A stretch of DNA of 64,000 nt from Mobula hypostoma (lineage: Eukaryota). The notes beneath the pieces are model-generated. The model saw nothing but the letters and a program-made list of their open reading frames with translations, ran no database searches and was not told the DNA's origin. The stretch spans positions 175,958,001-176,022,000 of the forward strand of contig NC_086097.1 of assembly GCF_963921235.1 (NCBI RefSeq), in the 5' to 3' direction. The position numbers and the translations under genes were made by a program. Shown in pieces: positions 3,819 to 62,710 of the stretch. The stretch's first letter is position 1, and every line of letters begins with the position of its first letter.

Positions 3819-3912
3819 ACACACATCAAAGTTGCTGGTGAACGCAGCAGGCTAGGCAGCATCTATAGGAAGAGGCGCAGTCGATGTTTCAGGCCGAGAC
3901 CCTTCGTCAGGA
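3819..3912 (-). mobile_element. Short Penelope-derived element with hammerhead ribozyme, copy 1
   Basis: Direct repeat CTCCAAGCA at 3810-3818 and 3913-3921; near-identical to the copies at 10735 and 55267. Confidence 0.85.
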
Positions 3913-4254: not shown

Positions 4255-4790
4255 AAGACTGCAAGATACTACAGCAGACACACACACACACACAAAAACT
4301 CAGCAGGTCAGGCAGCATCCATGGAAATGAATGGACAGCTAACATTTTGGGCCAAGACCTTTCTTCAGGACTGAGAAAGAAGGGGGAAGATGCCAGAATG
4401 AAAAGGTGGGCAAGGGGAAGGAGACTAGCTGGAAGGTGACAGGCCAGGCCAGGTGGGTGCAAAAGGTCAAGAGCTGAGAAGAAGTGATCTGGTAGGAAAG
4501 TAGAATGGACCATAGGTGAAAAGAAAGAAAGAAGAGACCCAGGGGAAGTAATAGGCAGGTGAGAAGAGGTAAAAGGTTGGAGTGGGGAATGGGGGTGGGG
4601 GGTGGGGCGCAGAGAGGAGAAATCAATATACATGCCATCAGGTTGGAGCCTGCCCAGATGGAATATAAGGCTTTGCTTCTCCATCCTGAGGGTGACCTCA
4701 TCTTGGTACAAGAGGAGGCCATGGACCGACACATCAGAACAGAAATGGAAAAAAAAAATCAGAATTCCCATACTACAGGGAGTTGTGGAA
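4255..4790 (-). mobile_element. Penelope-like element remnant: GIY-YIG endonuclease C-terminus plus terminal repeat
   Basis: ...RMEKQSLIFHLGRLQPDGMYIDFS followed by a decayed hammerhead (gtcctgaagaaaggtcttggcccaaaatgtt) and the gatgctgcctgacctgctgag block. Confidence 0.8.
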
Positions 4791-7047: not shown

Positions 7048-7069
7048 TAATGAGAGAAGACGTAAAGGA

Positions 7070-7266
7070 GACTGCAGATGCTGGAAATCTGGAGCAACAC
7101 ACAAATTCCTGGAGGAACTCAGTGGGCCAGGCAGCATCTGTGGAGGGAAATGGACAATCAATGCTTCTGGTTGAGGCCCTTTATTTAAAAAAAATATTGA
7201 CTGTCCATTTCCCTCTAAAGATGCTGCCTGACCTGTTGAGTTCCTTCAGCATCTTGTGTGTTGCTC
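7070..7266. mobile_element. Inverted pair of Penelope terminal-repeat fragments (hairpin, arms about 70 bp)
   Basis: 7092-7162 is the approximate reverse complement of 7197-7266. Confidence 0.8.
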
Positions 7267-8236: not shown

Positions 8237-10734
8237 AAAAAAAATAGGCAAGGCATGGAACTATACGATCCTAATGCAGGAAATGAGACTACTGTAGATA
8301 GCCAAAAAGATTGGCATGGATGTGATGGCCAGAAGGGCCTCTTTCTGTGCTGTTCATCTCCACGACTATTTGCCCTCACCCTTAGAATATGTTCAGTACT
8401 GATTCTAATAAAACAAATCTTTCTTTTAATTTGGAAGATCAGAACTGTACACAGTAGATGGGTGTGGCATCTCCAGGGCTGATAACACACTCGTAAAAGT
8501 TGTCTGGGCTTGTGTTCAAAGGCTTGGACTACAGATCCATTATACAAATTCTGCCCAACCAACTGGGGGATATTCAGAAGGCTGGTTTGAGACTGACCTC
8601 CATTACTATCTGGCACATTCTCCACACCATCTTCTCATTACCACCATTAGGGAGGTGGTGCAGGAGCCTGAAGACTCATACTCGATGATTCAGGAACAGC
8701 TTTTTCCCCTCCACCACCAAATTTCTGAATGGCCCATGAACACTGCTTTGCTATTCCTCTTTTGCACTATTTATCTGTAATTAAAACTTACAATTTTATT
8801 TTTATATCTTGCACAGTACTGCTGCCACAAAACGACACATCTCACAACACGTCAGTGATAATAAACAGGATTCCAATTCACAGTACGGGTTTCTTCTTGG
8901 TGCTCTGGTTTCCTCCCACATACCAAAGACTTGCTGATTGGTAGCTAAACTGGCTAATGCAGTTGGGTGCCAGGAGGGAGTTGACAGGCATTAGAAGATC
9001 CAGAAAGTCGTACAACATAGAAATAGGCCCATCTGCCCAAGATGCATATACAAGATAGTCTCATCTGTCAGGATTTGGCCCAGATCTCCCCAAATCTTTC
9101 CTGTCCATGTACTTGTCCAAGTGCCTTTCAAATATTATTAATGTACTTGTCTCAAGCACTTCCTCAGGTAACTCCATACACTCACCAGCCGCTGTGTGAA
9201 GAAGATGCCCCTCAGGTCTATTTTAAATCTTTCTGCGATACCAATTTAAACAGCACATCTGCCTGCACATGGTCTATATCATTCCATTCCTTGTCCGTCT
9301 GTGTGTCTGAGTAAATGCCATTTAAATGTTGCCATCATATATGTTTCTTACACCTCCCCTAGAAGGGTGTTCCAGACACCTACCACTCTGTATTTCTATG
9401 TGAGTCTCTTCTGAAGTTTCCACTGTCAACTTATAGCTCTGCCCTGTCCAATGTTCTTAAAATATTGTTATTGTACCCACCTCAAATACTTCCTTTGATT
9501 GCTTGAAGTTGCCCCTTCAGGTCCCTTTTAAATCATTCCCCTCTCAGCTCAAACTTTGCCCTCTTAAGCTTGATTCCCTACCCTTGGGGAAAAAAAAGAC
9601 TATGTGCAAGTTGTATCAGTATTGTAGTGGAATAAAGGGAATTACAGAGGCATGAGAGAGGAGCTGGCCAAAATTGATTGGAAAGGAACATCGGCAGGGC
9701 TGACAGCAGAGCAGCAATGGCTAGAATTTCTGGGAGCAATTCAGAAGGTGGAGGATATATACCTCCTCTACCAAATAAAGTGGCCATTGAATGTTTCCAA
9801 GGGCTAACAGCCAAGCAACAGAGGAAAAATGGTTATGAAGGCAGACTTAAAACATTCTTGAAGCAATGCAATTTCCAGATTTTTTTTTAACAATGGTAGT
9901 GCTTGATAATAAAGGATAGAACCATAGAACCATAGAAACTACAGCACAGAAACAGGCCCTTTGGCCCTTCTTGGTTGTGCCGAACCATTTTCTGCCTAGT
10001 CCCACTGACCTGCACACGGACCATATCCCTCCATACACCTCCCATCCATGTATCTGTCCAATTTATTCTTAAATGTTAAAAAAGAACCCGCATTTACCAC
10101 CTCGTCTGGCAGCTCATTCCATACTCCCACCACTCTCTGTGTGAAGAAGCCCCCCCTAATGTTCCCTTTAAACTTTTCCCCCCTAACCCTTAACCCATGT
10201 CCTCTGGTTTTTTTCTCCCCTTGCCTCAGCGGAAAAAGCCTGCTTGCATTCACTCTATCTATACCCATCATAATTTTATATACCTCTATCAAATCTCCCC
10301 TCATTCTTCTATGCTCCAGGGAATAAAGTCCTAACCTATTCAATCTTTCTCTGTAACTGAGTTTCTCAAGTCCCGGCAACATCCTTGTAAACCTTCTCTG
10401 CACTCTTTCAACCTTATTTATATCCTTCCTGTAATTTGGTGACCAAAACTGAACACAATACTCCAGATTCGGCCTCACTAATGCCTTATACAACCTCATC
10501 ATAACATTCCAGCTCTTATACTCAATACTTTGATTAATAAAGGCCAACGTACCAAAAGCTCTCTTTATGACCCTATCTACTTGTGTCGCCACTTTTAGGG
10601 AATTTTGTATCTGTATTCCCAGATCTACTGCACTCCTCAGTGACTTACCATTAACCCTGTATGTTCTACCTTGGTTTGACCTTCCAACGTGCAATACCTC
10701 ACACTTGTCTGTATTAAACTCCATCTGCCATTTT

Positions 10735-10876
10735 CCTTCAGTTAGTCCTGACGAAGGGTCTCGGCCTGAAACGTCGACTGCGCCTCTTCCTATAGATGCT
10801 GCTTGGCCTGCTGCGTTCACCAGCAACTTTGATGTGTGTTGCTTGAATTTCCAGCATCTGCAGAATTCCTGTTGTT
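10735..10876 (+). mobile_element. Short Penelope-derived element with hammerhead ribozyme, copy 2, nested in CR1
   Basis: Target-site duplication TGCCATTTT at 10726-10734 and 10877-10885; the CR1 frame KWQMEFN is restored on removal. Confidence 0.92.
10744..10779 (+). ncRNA. Minimal type I hammerhead ribozyme
   Basis: AGTC-CTGACGA-AGG(GTCTCGG)CCT-GAAA-CG-TC^GACT: intact CUGANGA and GAAA core, stem I AGTC/GACT, stem II AGG/CCT, palindromic ACGT stem III. Confidence 0.85.
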
Positions 10877-12689
10877 TGCCATTTTTCAGCCCATTTTTCC
10901 AGCTGGTCCAAGTCCCTCTGCAGGCTCTGAAAACCTTCCTCACTGTCTACTACACCTCCAATCTTTGTATCATCAGCAAACTTGCTGATCCAATTTACCA
11001 CATTATCATCCAGATCATTAATATAAATGACAAATAACAATGGACCCAGCACTGATCCCTGTGGCATACCACTAGTCACAGGCCTCCACTCAGAGAAGCA
11101 ATTCTCTACCACCGCTCTCTGGCTTCTTCCATCGAGCCAATGTCTAATCCAATTTACCACCTCTCCATGTATACCTAGTGACTGAATTTTCCTAACTAAC
11201 CTCCCATGCGGGACCTTGTTAAAGGCCTTACTGAAGTCCATGCAGACAATATCCACTGCCTTCCCTTCATCCACTTTCCTGGTAACCTCCTCGAAAAACT
11301 CCAACAGATTGGTCAAACATGACCTACCACGCACAAAGCCATGTTGACTCTCCCTAATAAGCCCCTGTCTATCCAAATGCTTGTAGATTCTGTCTCTTAG
11401 TACTCCCTCCAATAACTTACCTACTACTGACGTTAAACTCACCGGCCTATAATTTCCCGGATTACTTTTCGATCCTTTTTTAAACAACGGAACAACATGA
11501 GCCACTCTCCAATCCTCCGGCACTTCACCCGTAGACAGAGACATTTTAAATATTTCTGCCAGGGCCCCCGCAATTTCAGCACTAGTCTCCTTCAAGGTCC
11601 GAGGGAACACTCTGTCAGGTCCCGGGGATTTATCCACTTTAATTTTCCTCAAGACAGCAAGCACCTCCTCCTTTTCAATCTGTACAGTTTCCATGGTCTC
11701 ACTACTTGATTCCCTCAATTCCACAGATTTCATGCCAGCTTCCTTAGTAAATACAGACGCAAAAAACCTATTTAAGATCTCCCCCATTTCCTTTGGTTCC
11801 ACACAAAGTCGACCACTCTGATCTTCAAAGAGGACCAATTTTATCCCTTACAATCCTTTTGCTCTTAATATACTTGTAAAAGCTCTTTGGATTATCCTTC
11901 ACTTTGACTGCCAAGGCAACCTCATGTCTTCTTTTTGCCCTCCTGATTTCTTCCTTAAGTATTTTCTTGCACTTCTTATACTCCTCAAGCACCTGATTTA
12001 CCCCCTGTTTCCTATACATTTCATACAACTCCCTCTTCTTATCAGAGTTGCAATATCCCTTGAGAACCAAGGTTCCTTATTCCTATTCAATTTGCCTTTA
12101 ATCCTGACAGGAACATACGAACTCTGCACTCTCAAAATTTCCCCTTTGAAGGCTTCCCACCTACCAATCACATCTTTGCCAGAGAACAACCTGTCCCAAT
12201 CCACGCTTTTTAGATCCTTTCTCATTTCTTCAAATTTGGCCTTCTTCCAGTTCAGAACCTCAACCCTAGGACCAGATCTATCCTCGTCCATGATCAAATT
12301 GAAACTAATGGTGTTATGATCACTGGAACCAAAGTGCTCCCCTACACAGACTTCTGTCACTTGCCCTAATTCGTTTCCTAACAGGAGATCCAATATTGCA
12401 TCCCTTCACAGACAAACAAATCACTGAAGATGCTCCACAAGAATCACAGATTCACAACACTGAATGGCAAACGGCATTCAATGCAGAAAAGAGTGAGGTC
12501 AAGTTCAATAAAAATATTTAAAAAACACTTGGACAAGCACATGGGTAGGGAAGTGCTAAAGGCATATAAGCCATGTGAGCACCTAGGTTACAGGGATGGG
12601 TTTGTCAGGTTAAGGAGTTTTCTTCCTTGGAGAATGAAGGATGACCCTTTGGAGGAGGATAAAATCATGAGTGTTATAGATAGGGTAGT

Positions 12690-14575
12690 CACCTTAAGAT
12701 ACAGGAGCAGAATTAGGCCATTCGGACCATTTCGTCAAGGTTAATACATTTTCCCTCTCAGCTCCAATCTCCGTCCTTTTCCCTGTATCCTTTCATGTTC
12801 TGACTACTCAAAAATCTATCCATTTCTGCCTTAAATATACCAAATGACTTGGCTTCCACGGCTGCCTGTGGCAGCAGACTCCATAAATTCACCGTTCTCT
12901 GGCTAAAGAAGATCTTCTGCATCTCAATTCTAAATGGCCATACCACTATTCATTCTAAGTCTGTGTCTTCTGGTATTACTCTCCCGACATAGGAAACATC
13001 CTCTCCACATCCACTCTATCAAGGCCTTTCAACATTTGATAGGTTCCAATAAGATCCTCCCTCATCCTTCAGAATTTCAGAGTACAGGCCTAGAGCTATC
13101 AAAAACTCCTCATATTATCACAGAATCATTTTTGTGAGCATCCTTTTAACCTTCTCCAATGTCAGCACATCCTTTCTTAGATAAGGGCTCCAAAACTGCT
13201 TGCAGTGCTCCAAGTGAGGCCTCACCGCTGTTTTATAAAGCCTCGACATATATTCTTTTATATTCTAGTCCTCTTGAAATGAACACTAACATTGCATTTG
13301 CCTTCATCACCACCTGATTCAACCTGTAAATTAGCATTCAGGAAATCCTACAAGAGGACTCCCAAGTCCCTTTGCGCATTGGAATTTTTAATTTTCTCTC
13401 CATTTAGAAAATAGTCTAACCTTTTATTTCTTCTATCAAAGTGCATGACCATACACTTACCATATATTTCATCTGCCACTTCTTTGCCCATTCCCCTAAT
13501 TTAAGTCCTTCTGTAGCCTCACTACTTCCTCAAAACTATCTGCCCCTCCAATCTTCGTATTGTCTGCAAACTTGGCCACAAAACCATCAATTCTGTCATC
13601 TAAATCAATGACATAGAATGTAAAAAGCAGTCTCAACACGCACTATGTGGAACACCACTAGTCACCAGCAGACAACCAGGAAAGGGTCCCTTTATTCCTA
13701 CGCTTTGCCTTCTGCCAACCAGCCAATGCTCTGTCCATGCTAGTATCTTTCCTTTAACACCATTGACACTTCAGTTGTTAACCAGCCTCATGTATGACAC
13801 CTTGTCAAACGCCTTCTGAAAACCCAGATTCTCCTTTGTCTATCCTGCTTGTTATTTCCTGAAAGAATTCCAACAGATTTGTCAGGCAAGATTTTCCCTC
13901 AAGGAAACCATGCCTATTTTATCATAAGCCTCCAAGTACCCCAGATCCTTAATAATTGTCTCCAATATCGTCCCAACCAGTGAGAACTGGCCTATAATTT
14001 CCTTTCTTATGTCTCTCTCCCTTTTTAAGGAATGGAGTGCATTTAAATCTTTCCAGTCCTCCAGAACCATGCCAGAATCTAGTGATTTTTGAAAGATCAT
14101 TACTAATGCCTCCACAACCTTTCAGCTGCCTCTTTTAGTACCCTGGGGTGTATACTATCTGACTTATTTTCCCTCAGACCTTTTAGTTTCCCAAGAACCT
14201 TCTGTCATGTAATGACATCTTCACACTCCTGTCCCCTGGTATTCTTGAACTTCTGGCACACCACTAGTGTCTTCCACAGTGAAGACTGACACAAAATACT
14301 TATTTAGTTTGTCTGCCATTTCCTTATCCCCTATTACTATCTCTTTAGCAACATCTTTCAGTGGCCATTATCTTCTCTCACCTCTCTTTTACACTTTATA
14401 TACCTGAAGAAACTTCTGGTATCTTCTTTAATATTATTGGCTAGCTTACCTTTGTATTCCACCTTTTCCTTCTTTACGATTTGTTTCTAGTTGCCTTATG
14501 TTGGTTTTTAAAAAGATTCCCAATCCTCTAAGTTCCCACTCAGTTTTTTTTTTGCTTCTGTTATGTGCTTTCTCT
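12690..14575 (-). mobile_element. Degenerate CR1 LINE ORF2
   Basis: EALVMIFQKSLDSG..EDWK remnant; CR1 3' UTR. Confidence 0.8.
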
Positions 14576-34180: not shown

Positions 34181-34509
34181 GCTCAAGTTGGTAAAACCTG
34201 AGGTACAGGCATACCCAAGCACACTCACTTCTCAATTACCAATCTCGTCTGACCTCTCTTATTAACAAGGGATCTTCACCTATAGGACTACCACATGATT
34301 GGTTGATTAGATATTTGCATTAACAAGGTGTACAGCTGTACCTAATAAAGTGGACACTCTGTATGTGCTGTTCTTGATGTTTATTGTGTATTCATTTATT
34401 ATTACTTTTTGTATTTGCACAGTTTGCGCACTGGTTGACTGCCCTGTTGGGTACGGTCTTTCATTAATTCTATTATGGCCATTAGATTTATTGTGTATGC
34501 CTGCAAGAA

Positions 34510-35345
34510 AATAGGAAGATAGGTGGAGGGGCAAGTACTGATGAGGAAGCAGAGAGGCTACGGAAAGACCAAGACAGATTAGGAGAAGTGGCAGATGAAA
34601 TACAGTGTTGAGAAGTGTATGGTCATGTACTCTGTTAAAAGAAATAAAAGCACAAATTTTCTAAATTTTCAAAAATCTGAGGTGCAGAGGGACTTGACAG
34701 TCTTTGTGCAGGTCTCCCTAAAGGTTAATTTGCATGTTAAGTCAGTGGTGAGGAAGGCATATGCAATGTTAGTGTTAATTTTGAGAGGACTAGAATATAA
34801 AAGCAAGGAAATAATGTTGATGCTTTATAAGACCTCACTTGGAGTATTATGAGCAGTTCTGGGCTGACAGGATGTGCTGACATTGTAGTGGGTTCAACGT
34901 AAATTCACAAAAATGATTCCAGGATTGAGATTCTTGTCATATGAGGAGCATTGGATGGTTTTGCTGGGTCTGTACTCCATGGAATTCAGAAAAATGAGGG
35001 GAGAATCTTATTGAAACCCATCAAATGCAGAAAGGCCACAATAGAGTGGATGTGGAGAGTTTGTTTCCCATGGTGGAGGAGTCTAAGACTTGAGGACACA
35101 GCCTCAAAAGAGGGAATCCATTTAGAACGAAGATGAGGAGGAAATTCGTTAGCCAGAGAGTGGTCAATCTGTGGAATTCATTGCTACAGGCGGCTGGGGA
35201 GGCCAAGTGGTATACTTAAGACAGAGGTTGATAGATTCTTGATTAGTCAGGGCATGAAGGGATATGGGGAGAAGGCAGGAGACTGGGTCAGCCATGATGA
35301 ATCAGTGGGTCAAGTGGCTCGATCCTACTCCTACATCTTATGGTC
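34510..35345 (+). mobile_element. Degenerate CR1 3' half
   Basis: RGLEYKSKEIML; SQRVVNLWNSL. Confidence 0.8.
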
Positions 35346-36811: not shown

Positions 36812-38873
36812 CTGTTTGGGAGGAAAAGCACCAGTCAGTGACCATCCTGGCAAATCCATTCAGCTCCCTGCTCTACATTGCGCCAAGTACATACTTGCTG
36901 AGTGGTGAGAGCATCCAGGTCTGAATGCAGAGAACTGGATGAGCTCACCCACAACATCCAAGACAGAGTGGAGACCTCAGCTGACAGATCCCTGGTGCTG
37001 TGCCCTGATGGCCTCAAGTCTCACTACCAACATTGTGGAGGTACAGGATTCTGAAGTCCTACACTCAACGATTCAGGAACAGCTTCTCCTCCACCACCAG
37101 ATTTCTGAATGACCCGTGAACACCATCTCATTATTCCTCTTTTATTTTTTGCGCTGTTTAATAATTTATAGTCATTTTTATGTTTTTGCACTGTACTGCT
37201 GCAACAAAACAAGTTTTCATGACATGCCAATAATAATAAACCTGATTCTGATAGTTATTTCTGATATTCATGGTCTATTATAGACTTATGAAAAATAATT
37301 GCTATTGATAAAATACAATGAAATATTAGAGTCACAAAATAACTCCAAGATGCCAAATTCCATGCCAAATGAACAGGTTTGCCACCAGTGCACTTCAAAG
37401 TCCTCACTATCAGAAGAACATTAGAGAATCCGAGAAGATGTCAAAACAAACTTGTAGTTTTAACTTGCGTCTGATGAAGGACCAGGGATATTAACCATTT
37501 TTCTCTCTGCAGATACTGCCTGAGTGTTTTTAGCATTCTCTGTTTAGATTTCCAGCACCAGTACTTTTTATTTTGGATACTTTTTCATTTATTATTTTAT
37601 ACACACCATGACTGACACTAGCTTTCTTTTTAAAGTTTCAGGTTTAATCAATCATTAGAATGTAAAATTGTCAGGTGGGATTTGCATCAGTGTCTTCCTT
37701 CCTTTCTCACTAATCTTCTTGGACCTTTTGATCCCTGTATTCCCTCAATTCTAATGTTATGCTTCCAGAATACTGGCTGCCTTTCCAGTAACTTTAAAAC
37801 CATCATGAAAAATCAAAATATGCTCAGTCTTTTTCAGAAATGGTATTGAGAACTTCAAGATCTTAAGATTCAGGAACATGCAGAGGCTTGGTTGAAGTGG
37901 TGGATGAATCTACACCATCTCACAAACTCTTGTTCCTGTCTGTGGAATAGTCTGCAATTCTGATATTAACCATCTCAGAGTCCACAGAAATAGAATGGAA
38001 GCAAGTTATCCTAGATCCTTAGGGAAATGTCTATGAAGACTGTACTGATTAATACCAGTACTTTAGAACATACACAGGAACAGGTCATTCAACCCATGAT
38101 GTCTGTGTGGAGCATTTATGCCAAATTAAACTAATCCATTCTGCCTGCACATAGTCTATATCCCTCCATTTTCTGCACATTCAGGGTGTCCATCTTAAAA
38201 GACTTTGAATACCGTTATTGTGTCTGATTCCAGCACCACCCCTGTCTGCCTATTCCAGGCACCCACCACTTCAAAATAACTTGTTCTGCACATCTCCCTC
38301 AAACTTTCTCACCTTAAATGCACGTCCTCTAGTATTTGATGTTTCTACCAAGGGAAAAAGATACTGACTGTCTACCTGCACCTCTCATAGTTTTATAAAC
38401 TTCTATCAGGTCTCCTCTCAGCCGCTGATGTTCTAGAGAAAACAATCAAGTTTGGCCAACTGCTTTTTCTAGCTTATATGCACTAATCCTGGCAAATCTC
38501 TTCCGCACTCTTTCCACATCCTTCCTACAATGAGGCGACCAGAATTGCATGCAATACTCCAAGTGTGGCTTAACCAAAGTTTTAGACCCGAGACATGAGA
38601 TTCTGCAGCTGCTGGAAATATGGAGTAACACAAAATGTTGGAGGAACTCAGCAGATGAGGCAGCACCCATGGAAGGAAGTAACAAAATGAGACTCTTTCT
38701 GATAAAGGTTCTATCAGAATCGTCAACTGTTGTTTTCTCTCCATACATGCTGCCTGACCTGCCAAGTTCCTCCAGAATTCTGTGAGATGTGCTGAAGTTT
38801 TATACTTCCTATTTTATTTAAAATGGTTTGACTAATGACATACAAATACAAAACATAGTTAATAAATACAGAC

Positions 38874-39204: not shown

Positions 39205-42200
39205 AGGACCACAAGGCATAGGAGCAGAATTAGGCCACTCGATCCGTCAAGTATGGTCCACTATTCCATCATGGCTGATTTATTATCCTTCTCGGCCTCA
39301 TTGTTTTGTCTTCTCCCATAACTGTTGAGGTCCTGACTAACCAAGAACCTATCAACCTCTGCTTTAAATATACTCAGTTACCTGACCTCCATAGGTGCCC
39401 GTGGCAACGAGTTCCATAGATTCACTACACCCTGGCTCAAGAAATTCCTTCTCATCTCTGTTCTAAATAGATGTCCCTCTATTCTGAGGCTGTGCCCTCT
39501 AGTCCTAAACTCATGCACTATAGGAAACATCCTCTTCTCATCCATTCTATCTAGATCTTTCAATATTCCATAGGTTTCAATGAGATCTGCCCCCCACCCC
39601 CATTTTTCTCAACTCCAGTGAGAACAGGCCTAGAGCCAAACACTCCTCATACGTTTACCATTTCATTCCCAGAATCATTTGTGAACTTCCTCTGGACCTT
39701 CTCTACCACCAGCACATCTTTTCTTAGATAAGGGGCCCAAACCTGCTCAGAATACTCCAAGTGCAGTCTGACCAGTGCCTCAAAGACTCAGCATCACATT
39801 GCTGCTCTTGTACTGTAATCCTCCCAGTCCTTACCACCAATTCAACCCGCAAGTTACCCTTTAGGGAATCCTGCACATGGACTCCCAAGTCCCTTTGTAC
39901 TATCGATTTTCGAATTTTCTCCCCATTTAGAAAATAGTCCACATCTCTTCCTTCTACCAAAGTTCATGACCATACACTTCACCACAGAACATTCCATCAG
40001 CCACATCTTTGCCCATTCTCTCAATCTTCCAAGGCCTTCTGCAGACTCCCTGCTTCCTCAACACCACCTGCCATTCCACCTGTCTTCGTATTGTCTGCAA
40101 GCTTGGCCATAAAGCCATCAATTCTATGATCCAAATGATTCACATATAACGTGAAAAGAAGCGATCTCAATACTGACCCCTGTGGAATACCACTAATCAC
40201 CAGCAGCCAACCAGAAAAAGCTTCCTTTCTCCCCCCACACTGCCTCCTGCCAGTCAGCCAATCTTCTATCTATGCTAATATATTTCCTATAATACCATGG
40301 GCTTTTATCTTGTTAAGCAGCCTTATGAGCAGAAGACTTCTGAACATCCAAATAAACAACATTCACTGACTCTCCTTTGTCTAACCTGCTGGTTATTTCC
40401 TCAAAGAATTCCAACAGATTTGCCAAACAAGATTTCCTCTTAAGGAAGCCATGCTGAATTGCTTTAACATGTGCCTCCAAGTACCCGGAAAATGTCTCCT
40501 TAATAATGGACTCCAACATCTTCCCACACTGAGGTCAGTCTAACTGGCCTAGGATTTCCCTTCTTCTGTCTCTCTCCCTTCTTGAAGAGAAGAGTGACAT
40601 TTACAGTTTTCCAGTCTGCTGAAGCCATTCTAAATCTAGTGATTGAAAGATTATTACTAATGCCTCCACAATCTCTTCAAGCTACCTCTTTCAGAGCCCT
40701 AGGGTATAATTCATCTGGTCCAGGTGACCAATCTACCTTCAGACCTTTCAGCTTCCCAACCACCTTCTCCTTAGTCATAGCAATTACGGTCTCTTCTGCC
40801 CACTGACTCTTGAACTTCCAGTGTTGTCCACAATGAAGACTGCAACAAAATAGTCAAGTTCGTCTGCCCTCTGCGTCTGTCATTGCTACCTCTCCAGCAT
40901 CATTTTCCAGCTGTCTGATATCCATTCTCACCGCTCTTTTATTGGAAAATTCTTTTGGTATCCTCTTCTATATTATTGGCTAGCTTACCGTCAAACTTCA
41001 TCTTTTCCCTCATGTTTTTTCTTTAAGTTGCTTTTTGGTGGTTTTTAAAAACATCCTAATGCTCTAACTTGCCACCATTTTTTGCTATATTATATGTCCC
41101 CTCTTTTGCTTTTCTGCTAACTTCCACTTCCCATGTCAGCCACAGTTGCCATATCCTTCCTTAGAATGCTGCTGCTTCTTTGGGATGAATTAATTCTGCA
41201 TCTTCTGAATTGCTCCTAGAAGCTGCAGCCAGTGCTGCTGTAACTCATCCACCTAGTTTGTCTTGCAATCAACTTTGGCCGGCTCCTCTCTCTCATGCCT
41301 CTGTAGCTCCTTTTACTCCACTGTAATACTGATATATCTGATGAACTTCTCAAATTGCAGGGTGAATTTTATCACATGATCACAGTCTCCTAAGAGTTCC
41401 TTTACCTTAAGTTCTCTAATCAAATCAGGTCCATTACACAACACCCAATCCAGAATTGCATTTCCCTTATGCGCTCAATGACAAGCTGCTCCAAAAAGTC
41501 ATCATTAGCATTCTCCTTGGATCCAGTGCTGATTTCCCCCCAATCTACCTGCATATTGAAATCCTCCACATTCATCATAACGTTGCCCTTACTACATTCC
41601 TTTATTTCCCATTTAAACTTATATCCCACAACTTGGCTGCTGTTTAGGGCTTGTCTACAACTCTCATCAGTCTTTTTACCCTTGCAGTTTATTAATTCTA
41701 CCAACAAGGATTCTACATCATCTGATTCCATGCCATTTCTTTCCAAGGGTTTGATTTCATTTTTTTTAAATAACAGAGCCACACCATCCTTTCTGCCCAC
41801 TTGCCTGTCCTTTTGATACAAGGTGCATCCTTGGATGTTAACCTTCCAAATATGATTTTCTTTCAGCCACGACCCAGTAATGCCAACATCATACCTGCCA
41901 ATCTGGAACTGCACTACAAGATCACGTACCTTATTCAGCCCTGTATTCATCACCCTTTATGATTTTGCCCCCGTGTTACAGTTCAGCTCAAGTTTGCCCT
42001 GACATCTGCCTGTCCTTCCTCAGTCTCACAATGCACTGTACCAACTTGTATCCCACCTGCCACATCCCATTCCTCTGCCAACTTAGTTTAAACCCTCCCC
42101 AACAGCTCTAGCAAACTTGTCCACAAAGATATTAGTGCCCCTAGGGTTCAGGTGTAACCTGTCCTTTTTGCACAGGTCATACCTTCTCCAGAGAGATCCC

Positions 42201-43029: not shown

Positions 43030-44380
43030 GGATGCTGAAAGGTCTGAAGGTAAATAAATCACTAGATGGACTACACCCAGTGTTCTGAAAGAGATAGCTG
43101 AAGAGATTGTGGAGGCATTAGTAATGATCTTTCAGGCATTAATAGATTCTGGAATTGTTGAAATGTCACTCCAATTCTCAAAAAGGGAGGGAGACAGTAG
43201 AAACAAAATTACAGGCCAGTTAACCTGACTCAGTGATTGGTATGATGTTGGAGTCTACTATTACGGTTGTGTTTTCAGGATACTTGGAGGCACATGATGA
43301 AATAGATCAAAGTCAGTATGTTTTCCTTAAGGGGAAAACTTGCCTGACAAATCTGTTGGAATTCTTGGAGGAAATAACAGGCGGGATGGACAAAGGAGAG
43401 TCAATGGACATGGTTTATTTAGATCTTGTCAATGACTTGGATGATGGAATTGTGGACAAGCTTGCCGATGGTATGACACTAAGCTGAGAGGCGGTTGGTT
43501 TTGAGGAATCAGGGAGTCTACAGAAGGACTTAGACAGATTGGGAGAAAGGACAAAGTAGTATCAGATGGAATATATTGTAGAGAAGTGTGTGGTCATGCA
43601 TTTTGGTAGAAGGACTAAAGACCTAGATTATTTTCTAAGTGGTGAGAAAATTCAACAGAGTGCAAGGGGACTGGAGTCCTAGTGCAGAATTCCCCAAACG
43701 TTGACGTGCATGGTTAGTCAGTGGCAAGGAGAGCAAATGCAATTGTAGCGTTCATTTCGAGAGAACTAGAATACAAAAACAAGGATGTAATGCTGAAGTT
43801 TTACAAGGCATTAGTTAGACTGCACTTGGAGCATTAGAGTAGTTTTGGTCCCTTATGTAAGAAAAGAAATGCTGGCATTGGAGAGGGTCCAGAGGAGGTT
43901 CATGATAATAATTTCAGGAATGAATGGGTTAATGTATGAGGAGAGTTTTATGGCTCTGGACTTTCACTGGAATCTAGAAGAATGGGTGGGGGAAATCTCA
44001 TTGAAACATATTTAATACTGAAAGGCCTAGATGGGGAGAGGATGTTTTGCATAGTGGGGGAGTCTAGTACCAGAGTCACAGCCTCAGAATAGAAAGACAT
44101 GCATTTAGAACAGAGTTAAGGAAGAATTTCTTTAGCCAGAATCTGTGGTGAATCTGTGGAATTCATTGCTTCAGATGGCTGTGTCATTGCTTCAGGAGGT
44201 CAAGTCATTGGGTACATTTAAAACAGATCGATAGATTCTTGATTAGTCTGGGCATCAAAGGTTACAGGGAGAAGGTAGGAGAATAGGGTTGAGAGGGTTA
44301 ATAAATCAGTCATGATGGAATGGCAGAGCAGACTTGATGGGCTGAATAGTCTAATTTTTCTCCATATCTTATGATCTATT
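43030..44380 (+). mobile_element. Degenerate CR1 ORF2 with internal deletions
   Basis: [14 protein letters not shown]...VYLD; CR1 3' UTR. Confidence 0.8.
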
Positions 44381-49648: not shown

Positions 49649-52600
49649 CTGTGGAGTATGAGAAAACACAAGTGTTAATAGGTAAACTGAGGGGCACTGC
49701 CAACCACAACTCAAGGCAAAATTTGAAAAAGATGTATTGACTTTGGAGACCGTGCAGAGGAGGTTCACAGTATCGATTCCAGAGTTGAAGGGGCTAGTCT
49801 AAAAAGGAGACATTGACTTGCTTGGGACCATACTTGCTTGCATTCAGAGAATGGGACAGAATCTTATAGAAACACACAAAACCACAAAAGGGATACACAA
49901 AAGAGGCTCCATTGGTTCCAAGTTGGTTCCATTGTTAGGTGAGACTGGGGGGCATAGCTTTAAGATTCGGGGGAATAAATTTAGGGTGGAGATGAGGAGA
50001 AACTGCTTTTCCAGGAGAATGGAAAATCTGTGGAATTGTCTGCACAGCAAATCAGTAGACGCTGCCTCATTAGATATATTTAAGACACAGTTCAATATTT
50101 TATTGCATAGAAGGGGAATTAAGGGTTATTATGGGAGGTAGGTGGAGCTGAGTTCACAGTCATACCAGCTATTATCTTACTGAATGGTGGAACAGACTTG
50201 ACAGGCCAGGTAACCAACTCCTATTCCTTACATACATTCCTTTGCTGTCAGACAAAATTAAACCCCACAATATTCAGTCAGTGAATAAAAGAAAAAAAAC
50301 TCATTTCTATGATGCCTTCTACATCCCAGTCAAATCACCTCAATAAAGAGCAATGCTGAAAATCCGACATAAAGTTGGGGTTGTTGGAAACCTGCAGCAA
50401 ATCAGCCAGCAACGATTAGAATCAGGTTTATTGCTGACATACAGTACACCATGAAATGTGTAGCTCCGTGGCAGCAGCACTGTGCAAGACAAAACATGCT
50501 GTACGTTACAAGCAAAAAAAGTGCGAAAGCAGAATAGTGAGTTAGTGCTCACAGTTTGGTGTACTGTTCTGAAATCTAATTTTGGAGGGGAAGAAGCTGT
50601 TCCTAATGTGAGTGTGGGCATTCAGGCTCCTGTTCCTCCTTCCTGATGGCAATGCTGACAAGAGGGATATCGAGTAAGTAGAGGTTACATTTCAAAGTTC
50701 AGCTATTTACCCTCAGGTCTGGATCATTTACAACATGGCAGCAGGATTTTCAAGTATACTGCACCTCCTCTGTCCCATTCTCTCCCTCTCCTGATCCACC
50801 TCAGACTTCTCTCACAATCCATACTTCACAAACCTATTGCCCTGTTTTTATTTGTCCCCTTAGCCATTCCATCTGCCCATCACCCACACACTCCCCTCCC
50901 CCATCCACTGGGTCCCCTCCCCCCAATGTTCCCATCAGCCCTCCCCACCTTCCTATCTGCTTCAATGCTCCACCTTTACTATCCGATTCTATCAGTCACA
51001 GCCCTTTCACTATCGCCTCCTAGCCTTGGTCATCATCACCAGCCTTCTATCCCTAAAATGACTATCAGAGTGCATCATGACTGGTTGCATCAAGGTCTCT
51101 TACAGAAATTCAGATGCACAGGAATACAAGCAGCTACAGAGAGTAGTGCACTCTGGCCAACACATCACACTCTTCCCCTCTATTGGTAGTATCTACACGA
51201 GGTGGGGCTTCAAGAAGGCAAGATCCGTCAAAAATCTCCACCATCCAGGCCATGCCATCTTCTTGCAGACACCATCAAGAAAGAGGCACAGAAGCCTGAA
51301 GTCCCACATCACCAGGCTCAAGAACAGCTACTATCCTTCGACCACCTGTTTCTTGAACCAACTGGCACAATCCTAATCATAGCCAATAGCAATACTAACT
51401 ATTTTGCACTAAAATGGACTTTTGTTTTTGTTTTGGTTGCATTCTTTCTGGTAGGAATTGTACATAATTTATATTTTCTTTGTGAATGCTGCTTCCATGT
51501 TGCTCTGTGCCTCTGATGCTGTTGCAAGTGGGTTTTTCATTGCACCTGTTCAGACACGTACTTGTGCACACGATAATAAACTCAACTTTCAGCCACTCCT
51601 CACGTGGATCCACTCACTTTCCAGCTCTTGCCTCACCACCTCCCCCCCTCCTCACCCCTTTACACTGGTGATTCCTTCTCTATTCATTCAGTCCGGGTGA
51701 AAACATCAACTGACAACTTCCCTCCACAGATACTGCCTGACCTGCTGAGTTCCTCCAGCAGATTACTTGTTGTTCCAGATTCCAGTATCCGCAGTCCCTT
51801 GTCTTTTCGTTGTTTTCTCCAGACCTTCTTGACCTGCTGATTGCTTTTAGTATTTAACTTTTCATCTCAATAGAGTTGAACGTTGCTGCAAGCACATAAT
51901 TGCAGGTAATCTGTGCACAGCAAGGTCCAACAAACAGCAATGTGCAACTATGACTAGAAAATCATATAGGGACCAACTGGCACAGAAACTGATCCGGAAC
52001 CCCTTCCTTATTTAAGATAACGGCCTCCCAAGGAAGCAGACTAGACTTGAGCTCTCTGGGCATGAACGTCAGCCAATGCTATTAAATTTGGGCTGCATTC
52101 CAAAGGTCCTTATGCCACTGTTTAATTGCACGATGAAAAAAAATTAACAACTCTTAAATCATTTAGCAGGTAAAAAAAAAGACAGTTTTTGTTTTAAAAT
52201 GTCCCTTTTACTGCTATCTTTCCCTTACCAGTTCCTAGTACATATATTAAAACACATGGTTGAGAACACATTCCAGTTTGTACCAATTGTGCTGAGATGA
52301 GAATGGTTGAGGGCTCCAGTTTCTGAGGTGTGAATAACCGAATGCCTGTTCTACTCCAATCACATGAGCACTATGCCAAAAATGCACACTAGTGCTTCTA
52401 CTTCCTTAGCCTACTGAGGAAATTTGATATGTCCCCATTGACTTTCCTTTCCTAATGCATGGAAATACAGGAGACTACAGATGCTGAAATCAGGAGCAAG
52501 TTTCTGCTAGAAGAATTCCGTGTGTTGATCAACACCAGGACTAGGAAAGGAATCATTGATGCTTCAGGTCAAAACCCTGGATCTGCACTGCAACAACCTT

Positions 52601-55266: not shown

Positions 55267-55399
55267 ACAACAGGAATTCTGCAGATGCTGGAAATTCAAG
55301 CAACATACATCAAAGTTGCTGGTGAACGCAGCAGGCCAGGCAGCATCTATAGGAAGAGGCGCAGTCGACATTTCAGGCCGAGACCCTTCGTCAGGACTA
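55267..55399 (-). mobile_element. Short Penelope-derived element with hammerhead ribozyme, copy 3
   Basis: 14-bp target-site duplication ACATGTGACAATAA at 55253-55266 and 55400-55413. Confidence 0.92.
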
Positions 55400-56504
55400 A
55401 CATGTGACAATAACTAATTCCAATTCATAGCCTTATACCTTATTGGCTGCCTACACTGTACTTTCTCTGTAAATATTCTGCATTTTTATTGCTTTTTGTA
55501 CTACCTTAATCCACTGATAAAATTAAATAAATATAATGAAGTTTTTCACTGTACCTCTGTACAGGTGACAGCAATAAACCAATTCTAATTCCAAATGGGG
55601 ACCAAACACAGGCAAATTGGACTAGTTATATCAGAATCAGGTTTATTACCACTGGCAAATTACATGGTTTGTTGTTTTATGGCATCAGTACAATACAAAG
55701 ACAGTAGCTTCCCTATCACTGATACAAGACAAACTGGTCTATAGCAACACGCTGGAGGAACTCAGCAGGTCGGGCAGCATCCGTGGAAACGATCAGTCAA
55801 CGTTTTGGGCCGGAACCCTTCGTCAGGACTGAAGAGGGAAGGGGCAGAGGCCCTATAAAGAAGGTAGGGGGAGGGTGGGACAGAGAAACTGATGCAAAAT
55901 ACCACACCTTCTGCCTCCAAGCACATATTCGCTCAGTCTTTGGGTGGTCCTACCTTCACCCTAGCCTCCTTCTTTCACTCAAATGCCTTACAGTTCTTAG
56001 TCCTACTTGCCAAGGTTATGTCATGCTAACTCCAGACTCTCCTAATTCCCTTCCTGAGTTCTTTTATGGCCTTTTTAAAAAAAAAAAAATCCACGGGGCC
56101 GTGAATTGATCTTATCTTTTAAAAACTTAGAATTGTTTCCTTTTCCCTTCTTGACTAAATTCCCCACCTCTTTGTCCAATGTTTCTTTACCTTGGCATCT
56201 TTGTCCTTCCTTCTTACTGTGTAGTTGCTCTTCAAACACCCTCCACATCAGGTGTTGACTTGCCCAAAAACATCAGTTCCCAGTTAACACTTCCCAGTTC
56301 CTACCTAACACTTTTGTAACTTTCCCTGCTCCTTCTTGTGCAAAATCCATAATGGCCCTCATTCATAGCTACTTAAAACTTAAGGAGTTGTGATCACTGT
56401 TCCGGCAATACTTTCCACAGAAATGCCTGTTATCTGACCAGACTCTTTTCTCAGGACCAAGTTGAGTATGGCCCATTTTATAGTTGGACTATTTCCATAC
56501 TTTT

Positions 56505-57610
56505 AAGACTATAAGATACAGGAGCAGAATTAGGCCATTTGGCCCATCGAGTCTGCTCCACTATTTCATCTTGCTTGATCCAATTTTCTCCTCAGCCCCA
56601 GTCTCCTGCCTTCTCCCCACATTCTTCATGCCCTGACCAATCAAGAATCTATCAACCTCTGCCTTAAATATACATATAGACTTGGCCTCCACAGCTGCCT
56701 GCGGCAAAGAATTCCACAGATTCACCACCCTCTGGCTAAAGAAATTCTTCATCTCCATTGTATAAGAATGCCCCTCTATTCTGAGGCTGTGTTCACTCAT
56801 CTTAGATTCTCCCACTATGGGAAACATCGTCTCCACAACCACTATCAAACCATTCAATGGGTTTCAATGAGACAACCCCTCATTTTTCTGAATTCTAGTG
56901 AATAAAGGTCCAGAGTCATCACTCTTCATACAACAAGCCACTTAATCCTGGAATCATTTTTGTGAACCTCCTTTGAACCCTCTCCAGTTTCAGCACATCC
57001 TTTCCAAGATAGCGGACCTAAAACTGCTCACAATACTCCAAGTGAGGACTTTCCAGTACTTTATAAAGTCTCAACATTACATCTTTGCTTTTATATGTTA
57101 GTCCTCTTGAAATGAATGCTAACATTGCATTTGTCTTCTTCACCAAAAACTCATCCTGCAAATTATCCTTCAGTGCCTCAAGTTTTTGTAATTTCTCTCC
57201 ATTTAGAAAATAGTCAACCCTTTCATTTCTTCTACCAAAGTGCATGATCATACACCTCAAAACACTTTCTATCTGCTATTTTTTTGCCCATTCTCCTAAT
57301 CTGGCCAAAACCTTCGGTAACTTTTCTACTTCCTCAAAACTACATGCCCCTCTCCCCTTCTCCACATCATCTGCAAACTTTGCAACAAAAGCCATCAACT
57401 CCATCATCTAAATTATTGACGTATAACATTAAAAAAATAGTCCCAACACTGACCCCTGTAGAACACTAGTCACCCACAGCCAACCAGAAAAGGTTCCCTT
57501 TGTTCCCCACTATTTGCGTCTTGCCAATCAGCCACTGCTTAATCCAAGCTAGAATCTTTCCCTTGTAGCTTGATAAGCAGCCTGATGCTTGGCATCTTGT
57601 CAAAGGTCTG
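56505..57610 (-). mobile_element. Degenerate CR1 RT to 3' end
   Basis: PHLEYCEQF; FFSQRVVNLWNSLP. Confidence 0.82.
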
Positions 57611-60030: not shown

Positions 60031-60139
60031 TCAAGTTTTTGGCCTGGAGTCAAATGTAGAATAGTGGATTTCCTGAAGGGCAAGCTTAAAATTCGAGGGG
60101 TAAGGGTTAATAGGGATTTGAGGGACAAGGTACAAAAAA

Positions 60140-60300
60140 AATTTGGAGGAACATGGCAGGTCAGGCAGCATGGAGGGAAATAAAGAGTTCAGGGCAAAAT
60201 GATGAAGGGTCTCTGCCTGAAACGTCAACTGTTTTTTTCCCCTTCACTGATGCTGCCTGACCTGCTGAGTTCCCCTAGCATTCTGTGCGCATTGCTCAAA
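60140..60300. mobile_element. Inverted Penelope terminal-repeat pair with decayed hammerhead (tgatgaagggtctctgcctgaaacgtc)
   Basis: gcaggtcaggcagcat...atgctgcctgacctgc inverted arms; further decayed copies near 38600-38790, 52470-52690, 55745-55880 and 61245-61383. Confidence 0.72.
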
Positions 60301-60877: not shown

Positions 60878-62261
60878 CTGAATCAGGAATAAAATAAATC
60901 TCAAATCAAGGAAAATGCAAGAAATATACTCATTCAACTTCGCAAAATAGGTAATTTTTAATTGTTGCCAGATGCACTAGGGTACAGTGAAAAATTTCAT
61001 TTGCACACCATTGACACAGATCATTTATTCACATCAGTACATCCAGGTAGTACAGAAGGGAAAACAATTACAGAATGCAGAAATTAGTGTTAAATAGCAA
61101 GTGCAATGAGGCAGACGGTAAGGTGCAAGATCATGATGAGGTAGATTATGAAGGTAAGAGTCCATTTGATTGTACAAGAGGACCATTCAATAGTCTTACA
61201 AAACTGGGGTACAAACTGTCCCTGAGCCTAGTTCTTTTTTTCTCCAGTCCTACAGAAGGGTCTTGGCCCGAAACGTCAACCATACTTTTTTCTCTCTTCC
61301 CCTGCCCCCCCACCCCCAGTGATGGTGCCTGGCCTGCTGAGTTCCTCCAGCATTTTGTGTACGTTGCTTGGATTTCCTGCATCTGAGATTTTCACTTATT
61401 TGAGCCTGGTGATATATACTTGCAGACTTTTGCACCTTCTGCCTGATGGGAGGGGAGAGAAAAGAGAATGCCCAGCGTGTTTGATTATGTTGGTGGCTTT
61501 ACCAAAGCTGCGAGAAATGTAGACAGAGTCTGTGGATGGAGGTGTAGTTTTCATGATATGCTGAGCAGTGTCAACAAATCTCTGCAGTTTCTGAAGTCTT
61601 GGGCAGAGTAGTCACCATACCAAGTGATGACCAATTATTATAGTATCTTAGAGGAGTTTGAGGCATTGGTTAGCTTTCTTGGTGTGATATTTGTGTGGCT
61701 GGGTCAGTACAGGCTTTCGATGATATTCACTCCTGGGAACTTTCAGCCTTTAGACCTCTGGAGATAGGAGCTCCTGCACTAACCTCCTTTCTGAAGTCAA
61801 AGACCACCTCTCATTTCGCTGACATTGAGGAGAAGATTGTTATCATGACACTGTTTACTAATCCTTCTACCTCCCTCTTGTTCTCTGGCTCATTGTGTCA
61901 TTTTGTTATTTGCAAACTTGTAGATAGTGTTAAAGCTGAATCTGGCCTTGCAGTTGTGAATGCAAGGCTTATCTTAATATAATTATATTGCTATTAGGGG
62001 GAGCTTGCAATGTGCTGAATGCCCTACAACACAACCTAATATGGTGCTGCTAGTCACCAAGCCACAGTTCATTATTTTCACACCCATGGATTCCTGATTT
62101 ACCATTATACTCAGTCTTCTCCATTATAATAGCAGCCTCATGAGTGGTAATAAGACCATAAGATATAGGAACAGAATTAGGCCATTTGGCCCATCGAGAC
62201 TGCTCTGCCATTTCATCATGGTGGATTCATTTTTTCCCCTCAGCCCCAGTCTCCCCCTCCC

Positions 62262-62710
62262 CCCCATATGACAATACTACAATACTTCTCCCCATGTGAC
62301 AATACCTTCCCATATGACAATATCACAATATCTCCCCCATGTGACAATACTACAATACCTCCCCCATGTGACAATACTGCAATACCTCCCCCATGTGACA
62401 ATACTACAATATCTCCCCCATGTGACAATAATGCAATACCTCCCCCATGTGACAATACTACAATATCTCCCCCATGTGACAATACTACAATACCTCCCCT
62501 ATGTGACAATACTGCAATACCTCCCCCATGTGACAATACTACAATACCTCCCCCATGTGACAATACTACAATATCTCCCCCATGTGACAATACTACAATA
62601 CCTCCCCTATGTGACAATACTACAATACCTCTCCCCATGTGACAATACTGCAATACCTCCCCCCATGTGACAATATTACAATATCTCCCCACACACGTGA
62701 CAATATTAAA
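62262..62710. repeat. 27-bp minisatellite, about 16-17 units (cccccatgtgacaatactacaatacct)
   Basis: Directly visible tandem array; explains the repetitive ORFs at 62240-62713. Confidence 0.96.

Follow-up and report, generated by a model that had tools for sequence, protein, structure and literature searches.

The window, a 64,000-nucleotide stretch of the Mobula hypostoma genome (contig NC_086097.1), contains three short, near-identical insertions of 95-140 bases that carry a hammerhead motif (Table 1). We are highly confident that these inserts are by-products of an autonomous 3.5-kb Penelope-like element (PLE). Its copies form two populations, one short, bounded and with the entire ribozyme motif, the other long and truncated at a constant rate. 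The short copies were probably made from the end of this Neptune-type PLE by run-off at the RNA 5' end near stem I of the hammerhead. They belong to a young and very common PLE family; the idea of an independent element is not supported and is largely refuted.

Table 1. Coordinates of the short Penelope-like insertions, their parts and the host LINE in the window.
Feature	Position	Strand	Remarks
Short Penelope-like insertion: pLTR end, hammerhead motif and 37-bp tail	10735..10876	+	-41..+100
Left TSD, 9 bp	10726..10734	+	Exact by script; single copy in 15/15 LINE paralogues
Right TSD, 9 bp	10877..10885	+	Exact by script; single copy in 15/15 LINE paralogues
Minimal type I hammerhead motif, predicted cut after C10775	10743..10780	+	Sequence compared with the min-HHR description in the available text of PMC4209133
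Optional tail, about 37 bp, between 3' end sites +64 and +101	10840..10876	+	3' ends of short copies
Second short copy, without tail, 9-bp TSD (3913-3921/3810-3818)	3819..3912	-	G to A at -3
Third short copy, with tail, 14-bp TSD (55400-55413/55253-55266)	55267..55399	-	C to T at -4
Young host LINE: 3' part of its RT gene, split by the insertion	9996..11847	-	RVT_1, E 1e-31

Positions within the element are given relative to the predicted ribozyme cut, with 0 at G10776, the base after C10775. In these terms the inserts span -41..+100 (copy at 10735), -30..+63 (3819) and -33..+99 (55267), the 5' end of each being blurred by 1-2 bases of microhomology. The initial annotation had listed three near-identical copies at these places, which is borne out by 97-98% identity: the two other copies matched the 10735 copy at 97.8% over 137 bp and 97.1% over 102 bp (E 4e-64 and 4e-45). 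The target-site duplications (TSDs) of 9, 9 and 14 bp that it gave were all recovered as exact by script, and the single-CpG change that it saw in both other copies is real, each having lost the CpG in the palindrome; the one at -3 in the 3819 copy disrupts the stem III palindrome. The 10735 copy differs from a natural complete copy of the element (L126) only at the polymorphic sites +27 and +60.

The LINE that hosts the 10735 copy is, from motif likeness, a putative CR1. An empty site with one TSD copy was found in all 15 LINE paralogues fetched (of 5,008 matches; flank identity 92-98%). The insertion is therefore younger than the young LINE that it interrupts, as had been proposed. Empty-site joints in sequencing contigs may stem from any LINE paralogue, and no polymorphism can be inferred from them. 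At least eight weaker matches (70-84%) to older relatives inside the window indicate that the family has more than three members. Such older relatives of the pLTR end lie at 4297-4392, 7072-7265, 38600-38784, 51700-51800, 55758-55830, 60138-60287 and 61246-61402, with a head-to-head pair at about 7065-7266. The window also contains a tandem repeat with a period of about 50 bp (62258-62708; 79-90% between copies) and, at 397-1497, 12695-14548, 34506-35287, 39207-41083, 43442-44372 and 56504-57564, members of a different interspersed repeat family that are old (65-77%). The three short copies themselves are predicted to be ordinary dead insertions.

Judged from its sequence, the motif in the 10735 copy is a predicted ribozyme of the minimal type I class (min-HHR). 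It comprises stem I (10743-10747/10776-10780), the core CUGACGA (10748-10754), a bulged A, a 4-bp stem II, GAAA and a palindromic ACGU with no loop III; the first stem II pair is G-U instead of the conserved G10.1-C11.1. The minimal PLE-type hammerhead named in the initial annotation is thus present in its core boxes, stems I and II and the palindrome that replaces stem III. The covariance-model scan that had been suggested as a check gave no such agreement: Rfam returned no hammerhead match in the window at E<=1, and three chance matches elsewhere. When imposed on the sequence, the hammerhead fold reached -7.0 kcal/mol, and the MFE fold was not the hammerhead (z -0.42). The exact window motif made up 97 of 214 regex matches. 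Stem I pairs in 38 of 71 distinct variants (shuffle mean 32.6, maximum 38), with no compensatory pairs; the family is very young, too young for a usable covariation signal. Lunse et al. are said to have described dimer cleavage of PLE hammerheads in 2016. As a lone short copy has a single predicted ribozyme without a stem III partner, it is predicted to be a dead end.

The parent element was traced with an anchor, a 26-mer starting at the predicted cut, by exact-pattern search of the 3.48-Gb genome. It had 19,138 exact matches, and the reversed control had none. Our unbiased sample consisted of the first 100 places listed on contig C1 and held 101 anchors, one extra having been found alongside. 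Of these anchors, 41 continued upstream for 72-2,986 nt at about 92-100% pairwise identity, via a pyrimidine-rich 3' region into an ORF. Since anchors run upstream into a 3.5-kb element, the 140-bp unit is the last part of the parental pLTR plus the tail. A motif just downstream of the tail had 377 matches, and 20 of the first 30 reach far into the ORF. Among 18 copies picked for their complete look and fetched whole, five had an open frame of 1,041-1,043 codons between hammerheads about 3.5 kb apart, with a putative ATG about 138 nt downstream of the predicted cut.

The protein of 1,043 codons gives RVT_1 (558-696) and GIY-YIG (946-1020) hits, both under Pfam curated cut-offs, together with DKG and YIDD motifs, a CX4CXXC linker and two Cys inside GIY-YIG. 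Among 7,994 scored sequences, 844 were homologues at E<=1e-50, and the best named relative came from a cartilaginous fish (72%); a PDB sequence search gave 0 matches. The parent element also displays a pLTR-ORF-pLTR partial tandem, inverted 5' copies, an optional tail and variable TSDs. On its motifs, it is classed as an EN+ PLE with a predicted C-terminal GIY-YIG domain, of Neptune or Nematis type and not Poseidon. Its CX2-5CXXC linker and CCHH motif, read against the available text of PMC8557442, agree with Neptune membership, although Nematis also has the linker.

Two or more sister subfamilies are told apart by positions +4..+6 and +15..+17, with some inversion or truncation points exactly at the predicted cut. 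A 26-mer from the ORF end (18,347 matches) is common to sister subfamilies and was hence kept out of the length profile; the 11,783 matches of the -70..-45 26-mer may be partly common to other subfamilies. One locus (L031) that resembled a full tandem with 3,151-bp spacing was rejected, as it consists of two neighbouring insertions. At another (L033), the two short copies at G000:C1:13257548 and 13261505 are identical, as is 469 bp of their flank, and lie 3,957 bp apart, representing either a local duplication or an assembly duplicate.

The 5' ends separate the two populations. In 60 of the 101 anchors the 5' end lay within 60 nt upstream of the predicted cut. Per 10 nt, the rate of 5' ends was 0.035 at 0..-19, 0.16 at -20..-29, 0.44 at -30..-33, 0.21 at -34..-47 and 0.08 at -48..-60. 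Beyond this, from -61 to -3,000, it was flat and 20-60 times lower (0.007, 0.009, 0.008 and 0.006). Inverted pairs are counted twice in these rates: at L001-L088, 39 of 100 anchors belong to head-to-head inversions, whose two arms meet near stem I and usually differ in that one has the tail and the other lacks it. A separate count covered 53 short copies that are not part of inversions: 19 belong to the unbiased sample, 31 passed a filter for short copies and three lie in the window. Their 5' ends ranged from 0 to -46; 23 of them start at -30..-33, 11 of these at -31. This peak is the 5' edge of stem I, 31 nt from the predicted cut. Genome-wide, patterns built alike found 715 ends at -31, against 172 at -37 and 107 at -46, which served as controls; on inspection by eye, the listed rows were genuine ends in 94 of 100 cases for -31 and in about 36 of 100 for -37. 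The filter for copies broken before -55 gave 5,385 matches. Allowing for chance matches, we estimate that the short class makes up about half of all anchors; it is spread over about 40 nt, and by our estimate ends at exactly -31 occur in about 5% of all anchors. The 5' ends thus do cluster at stem I, as the initial annotation had noticed, and the short class does not have the smooth distribution of ends that it had named as the mark of ordinary truncation. In open-licence literature, we found no description of a 5' end peak at stem I.

A second start at -46/-47, suggested by 4 of the 53 sampled ends, was rejected given only 107 such ends genome-wide. In L126, positions -53..-31 comprise a branch-point-like motif, a pyrimidine tract and an AG at the 5' edge of stem I, like the intron end of Drosophila virilis Penelope. 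For the DNA copies we reject a splice acceptor as the source of the -31 end, because a TSD or unrelated flank abuts it and no common upstream exon exists. No spliced form was seen, and in contigs from sequencing runs not recorded as RNA no joint landed at the -31 site among the 15 of 18 listed.

At the 3' side, two ends 37 bp apart are common to short and long copies. Of the 53 non-inverted short copies, 28 end at +60..+70, 22 at +100..+104 and three elsewhere, and an exact TSD of 7-16 bp flanks 35. The initial annotation was right about a young insertion, here of TPRT type, into a young LINE.

The initial annotation had gone further, proposing a ribozyme unit recently mobilised on its own, like a retrozyme or SINE. 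It is very unlikely that the unit has source copies of its own and is moved in trans in the manner of a SINE or a monomeric retrozyme. The short class is distinct and amounts to about half of the anchors, TSDs are frequent, and retrozymes are proposed as pLTR-derived in the accessible part of bioRxiv 10.64898/2026.07.22.740005. But 41 of the 101 anchors continue upstream, both ends vary, and the two polymorphic sites give the same four haplotypes in 145 short arms as in 41 long copies, at similar frequencies (Fisher p 0.33 and 0.48) and with similar divergence (short 1.0%, long 0.6%). In the short copies we found neither fixed ends nor private variants, although a SINE or retrozyme with a source copy of its own would be expected to carry the latter, and the loci examined contained no tandem 140-bp units or tRNA. 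Thus, neither the own source lineage nor the fixed 5' end of a SINE-like family was found. Likewise, the window copies are monomeric, whereas a non-LTR retrozyme has tandem units each with a hammerhead; these occur only at separate rare loci such as L137 and L138, with units of 262-443 bp and their own junction at each locus. The shared haplotypes, the varying ends and the monomeric state all speak against an independent unit.

Other insertions are permuted. From 30 loci (of 552 matches) we obtained 28 distinct insertions with the ORF-start 26-mer. In ten of them, a short 3' piece ending in the tail was preceded by sequence from downstream of the tail, joined at +237..+297 in eight of the ten; the upstream join lay at -32..-331, five times at -146..-160. 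The exact junction is repeated twice in L244, L257 and L138 and four times in L137. The latter (G000:C2:157815000-157819500, minus strand, about 1474-2740) has a 310-bp unit of hammerhead, tail and first part of the ORF within one TSD of about 13 bp, and two of its four cores carry a CpG change. L138, L244, L257, L247, L248, L250, L259 and L267 are permuted mini-units of 262-630 bp with junctions of their own, most leaving the ORF at +235..+297.

In the mechanism that we favour, the RT of the element would prime inside uncut element RNA at one of the two tail sites and then run off at the 5' terminus of the RNA, where the hammerhead starts. RNA of a complete element would contain hammerhead and tail twice, with only the upstream set preceding the ORF-start sequence, a requirement of the Anolis protein (PMC11167929). 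If the RNA begins near stem I, the template left after priming at the upstream tail would measure only some 95-150 nt, and we infer that the short class was primed at this upstream (5') pLTR. Position -31 may be the RNA end either as a transcription start (an initiator-like motif A lies at -32) or as an edge protected by protein or structure. The hammerhead junctions are intact and uncut in the inserts, and the permuted units lend support, as ORF-start sequence lay downstream of the priming site in their templates. Known from PMC11167929 are nicking by GIY-YIG and two internal priming sites that define the tail, though internal priming was demonstrated for an element of the Poseidon clade, not Neptune. 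We give the run-off step itself slightly better than even odds. Against it, the short class is spread over about 40 nt with few ends at exactly -31, the predicted second peak at the next initiator-like motif (-46) is missing genome-wide, and the contigs used derive from sequencing runs not recorded as RNA. Moreover, many templates must start well upstream of -31, since permuted joins reach from -32 back to -331 and, in a sample of 30 loci, the 5' pLTRs of complete copies have many lengths, from +85 to beyond -1,300. In the available text of PMC2377424 and PMC4209133, Drosophila Penelope has its start site 46 nt ahead of an intron of 75 nt, the end of which falls at helix I; that start is thus upstream of helix I, not at it.

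Alternatively, on long templates primed at the 3' pLTR, an RT stop or a cDNA fold-back after the hammerhead was copied could have made -31 a break set by structure. We regard this as rather unlikely, even though the switch points of the head-to-head inversions also peak at -28..-32, the 4-5 nt copied from the opposite strand of stem I are complementary to the end of the finished cDNA, and self-priming palindromic junctions appear in the accessible part of PMC3846280. The same peak is present in the non-inverted copies with clean TSDs, and the permuted units require template downstream of the tail. In addition, an RT moving 3' to 5' should halt where it runs into a helix, not once it is through, and the hammerhead fold is weak. 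Self-cleavage of the ribozyme as the step that sets the ends of the mobile unit is extremely unlikely. A few copies start exactly at the predicted cut (for example L014, with a TSD), but this holds for only one of the 53 non-inverted short copies. The copies run across the scissile bond; most breaks downstream of the cut, and of -6 generally, are by eye inversions or sister subfamilies; and ribozyme-dead mutants of the Anolis element still insert (PMC11167929).

Run-off at the RNA start at stem I after tail priming in the 5' pLTR would resemble a strong-stop product, yielding thousands of ribozyme-sized inserts. The exactly repeated junctions imply that short templates were circular or re-entered, and four identical junctions in one TSD make L137 apparently one insertion event. 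We tentatively extend the run-off reading to these loci: a short 5' RNA (about -30..-160 to about +260), closed or re-entered, might have produced tandem hammerheads within one TSD, and with them a retrozyme in a single step. The rare 262-443-bp tandems look like retrozymes being born.

About 19,000 near-identical young copies give a genomic read-out of the PLE copying reaction. It records the uncut state of the template, priming at two sites, an abrupt end where the ribozyme begins, and permuted multimers. The end peak at stem I and the permuted multimers are handles on the PLE cycle. Natural tandems could serve as substrates for dimer-cleavage and retrozyme-origin ideas, L137 being a natural substrate for the dimer-cleavage test.

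Much of this has precedents. The available texts of PMC4209133, PMC8557442, PMC7229834 and bioRxiv 10.64898/2026.07.22.740005 already describe the tails, the inversions, retrozymes derived from pLTRs, and the view that dispersed single min-HHRs are truncated PLEs. According to the accessible part of PMC4209133, the metazoan PLE min-HHR has a short helix I, a bulged base before stem II, no helix III and a palindromic 15.2-16.2, and mostly occurs as dispersed single motifs interpreted as truncated PLEs. The window motif is alike in its short helix I, bulged base, palindrome and lack of helix III, but its subfamily has a 4-bp stem II with G-U replacing the conserved G10.1-C11.1. The family is very homogeneous and resembles the young Drosophila virilis case in that text.

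Neptune-clade EN+ PLEs have 5'-truncated insertions and pLTRs (available text of PMC8557442 and PMC3846280). Our parent element shares with them one ORF with RT and C-terminal GIY-YIG, partial-tandem pLTRs, an adjoining inverted truncated copy, an optional tail of 30-40 bp, variable TSDs and the CX2-5CXXC linker. That text describes truncation as frequent, and not as a split into two populations of which one peaks at the edge of the hammerhead. Unlike those elements as portrayed there, the flanks printed here have, by inspection, no evident microsatellite target bias.

The Anolis Poseidon element PAc likewise has a tail bounded by two internal RT priming sites downstream of the hammerhead and uses uncut RNA as template, with no requirement for ribozyme activity (PMC11167929). 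It belongs to another clade, and its ORF starts within the hammerhead, in contrast to the start well past the cut in our element; the accessible part of that paper contains no analysis of the 5' ends of short genomic copies. Animal non-LTR retrozymes, as described in the available text of PMC7229834 and bioRxiv 10.64898/2026.07.22.740005, share the type I hammerhead and pLTR homology, and the rare tandems fit them in size and layout, while the window copies are monomers with one ribozyme motif and no source lineage. For such tandems the accessible part of the preprint proposes local amplification, whereas L137 points to one insertion event.
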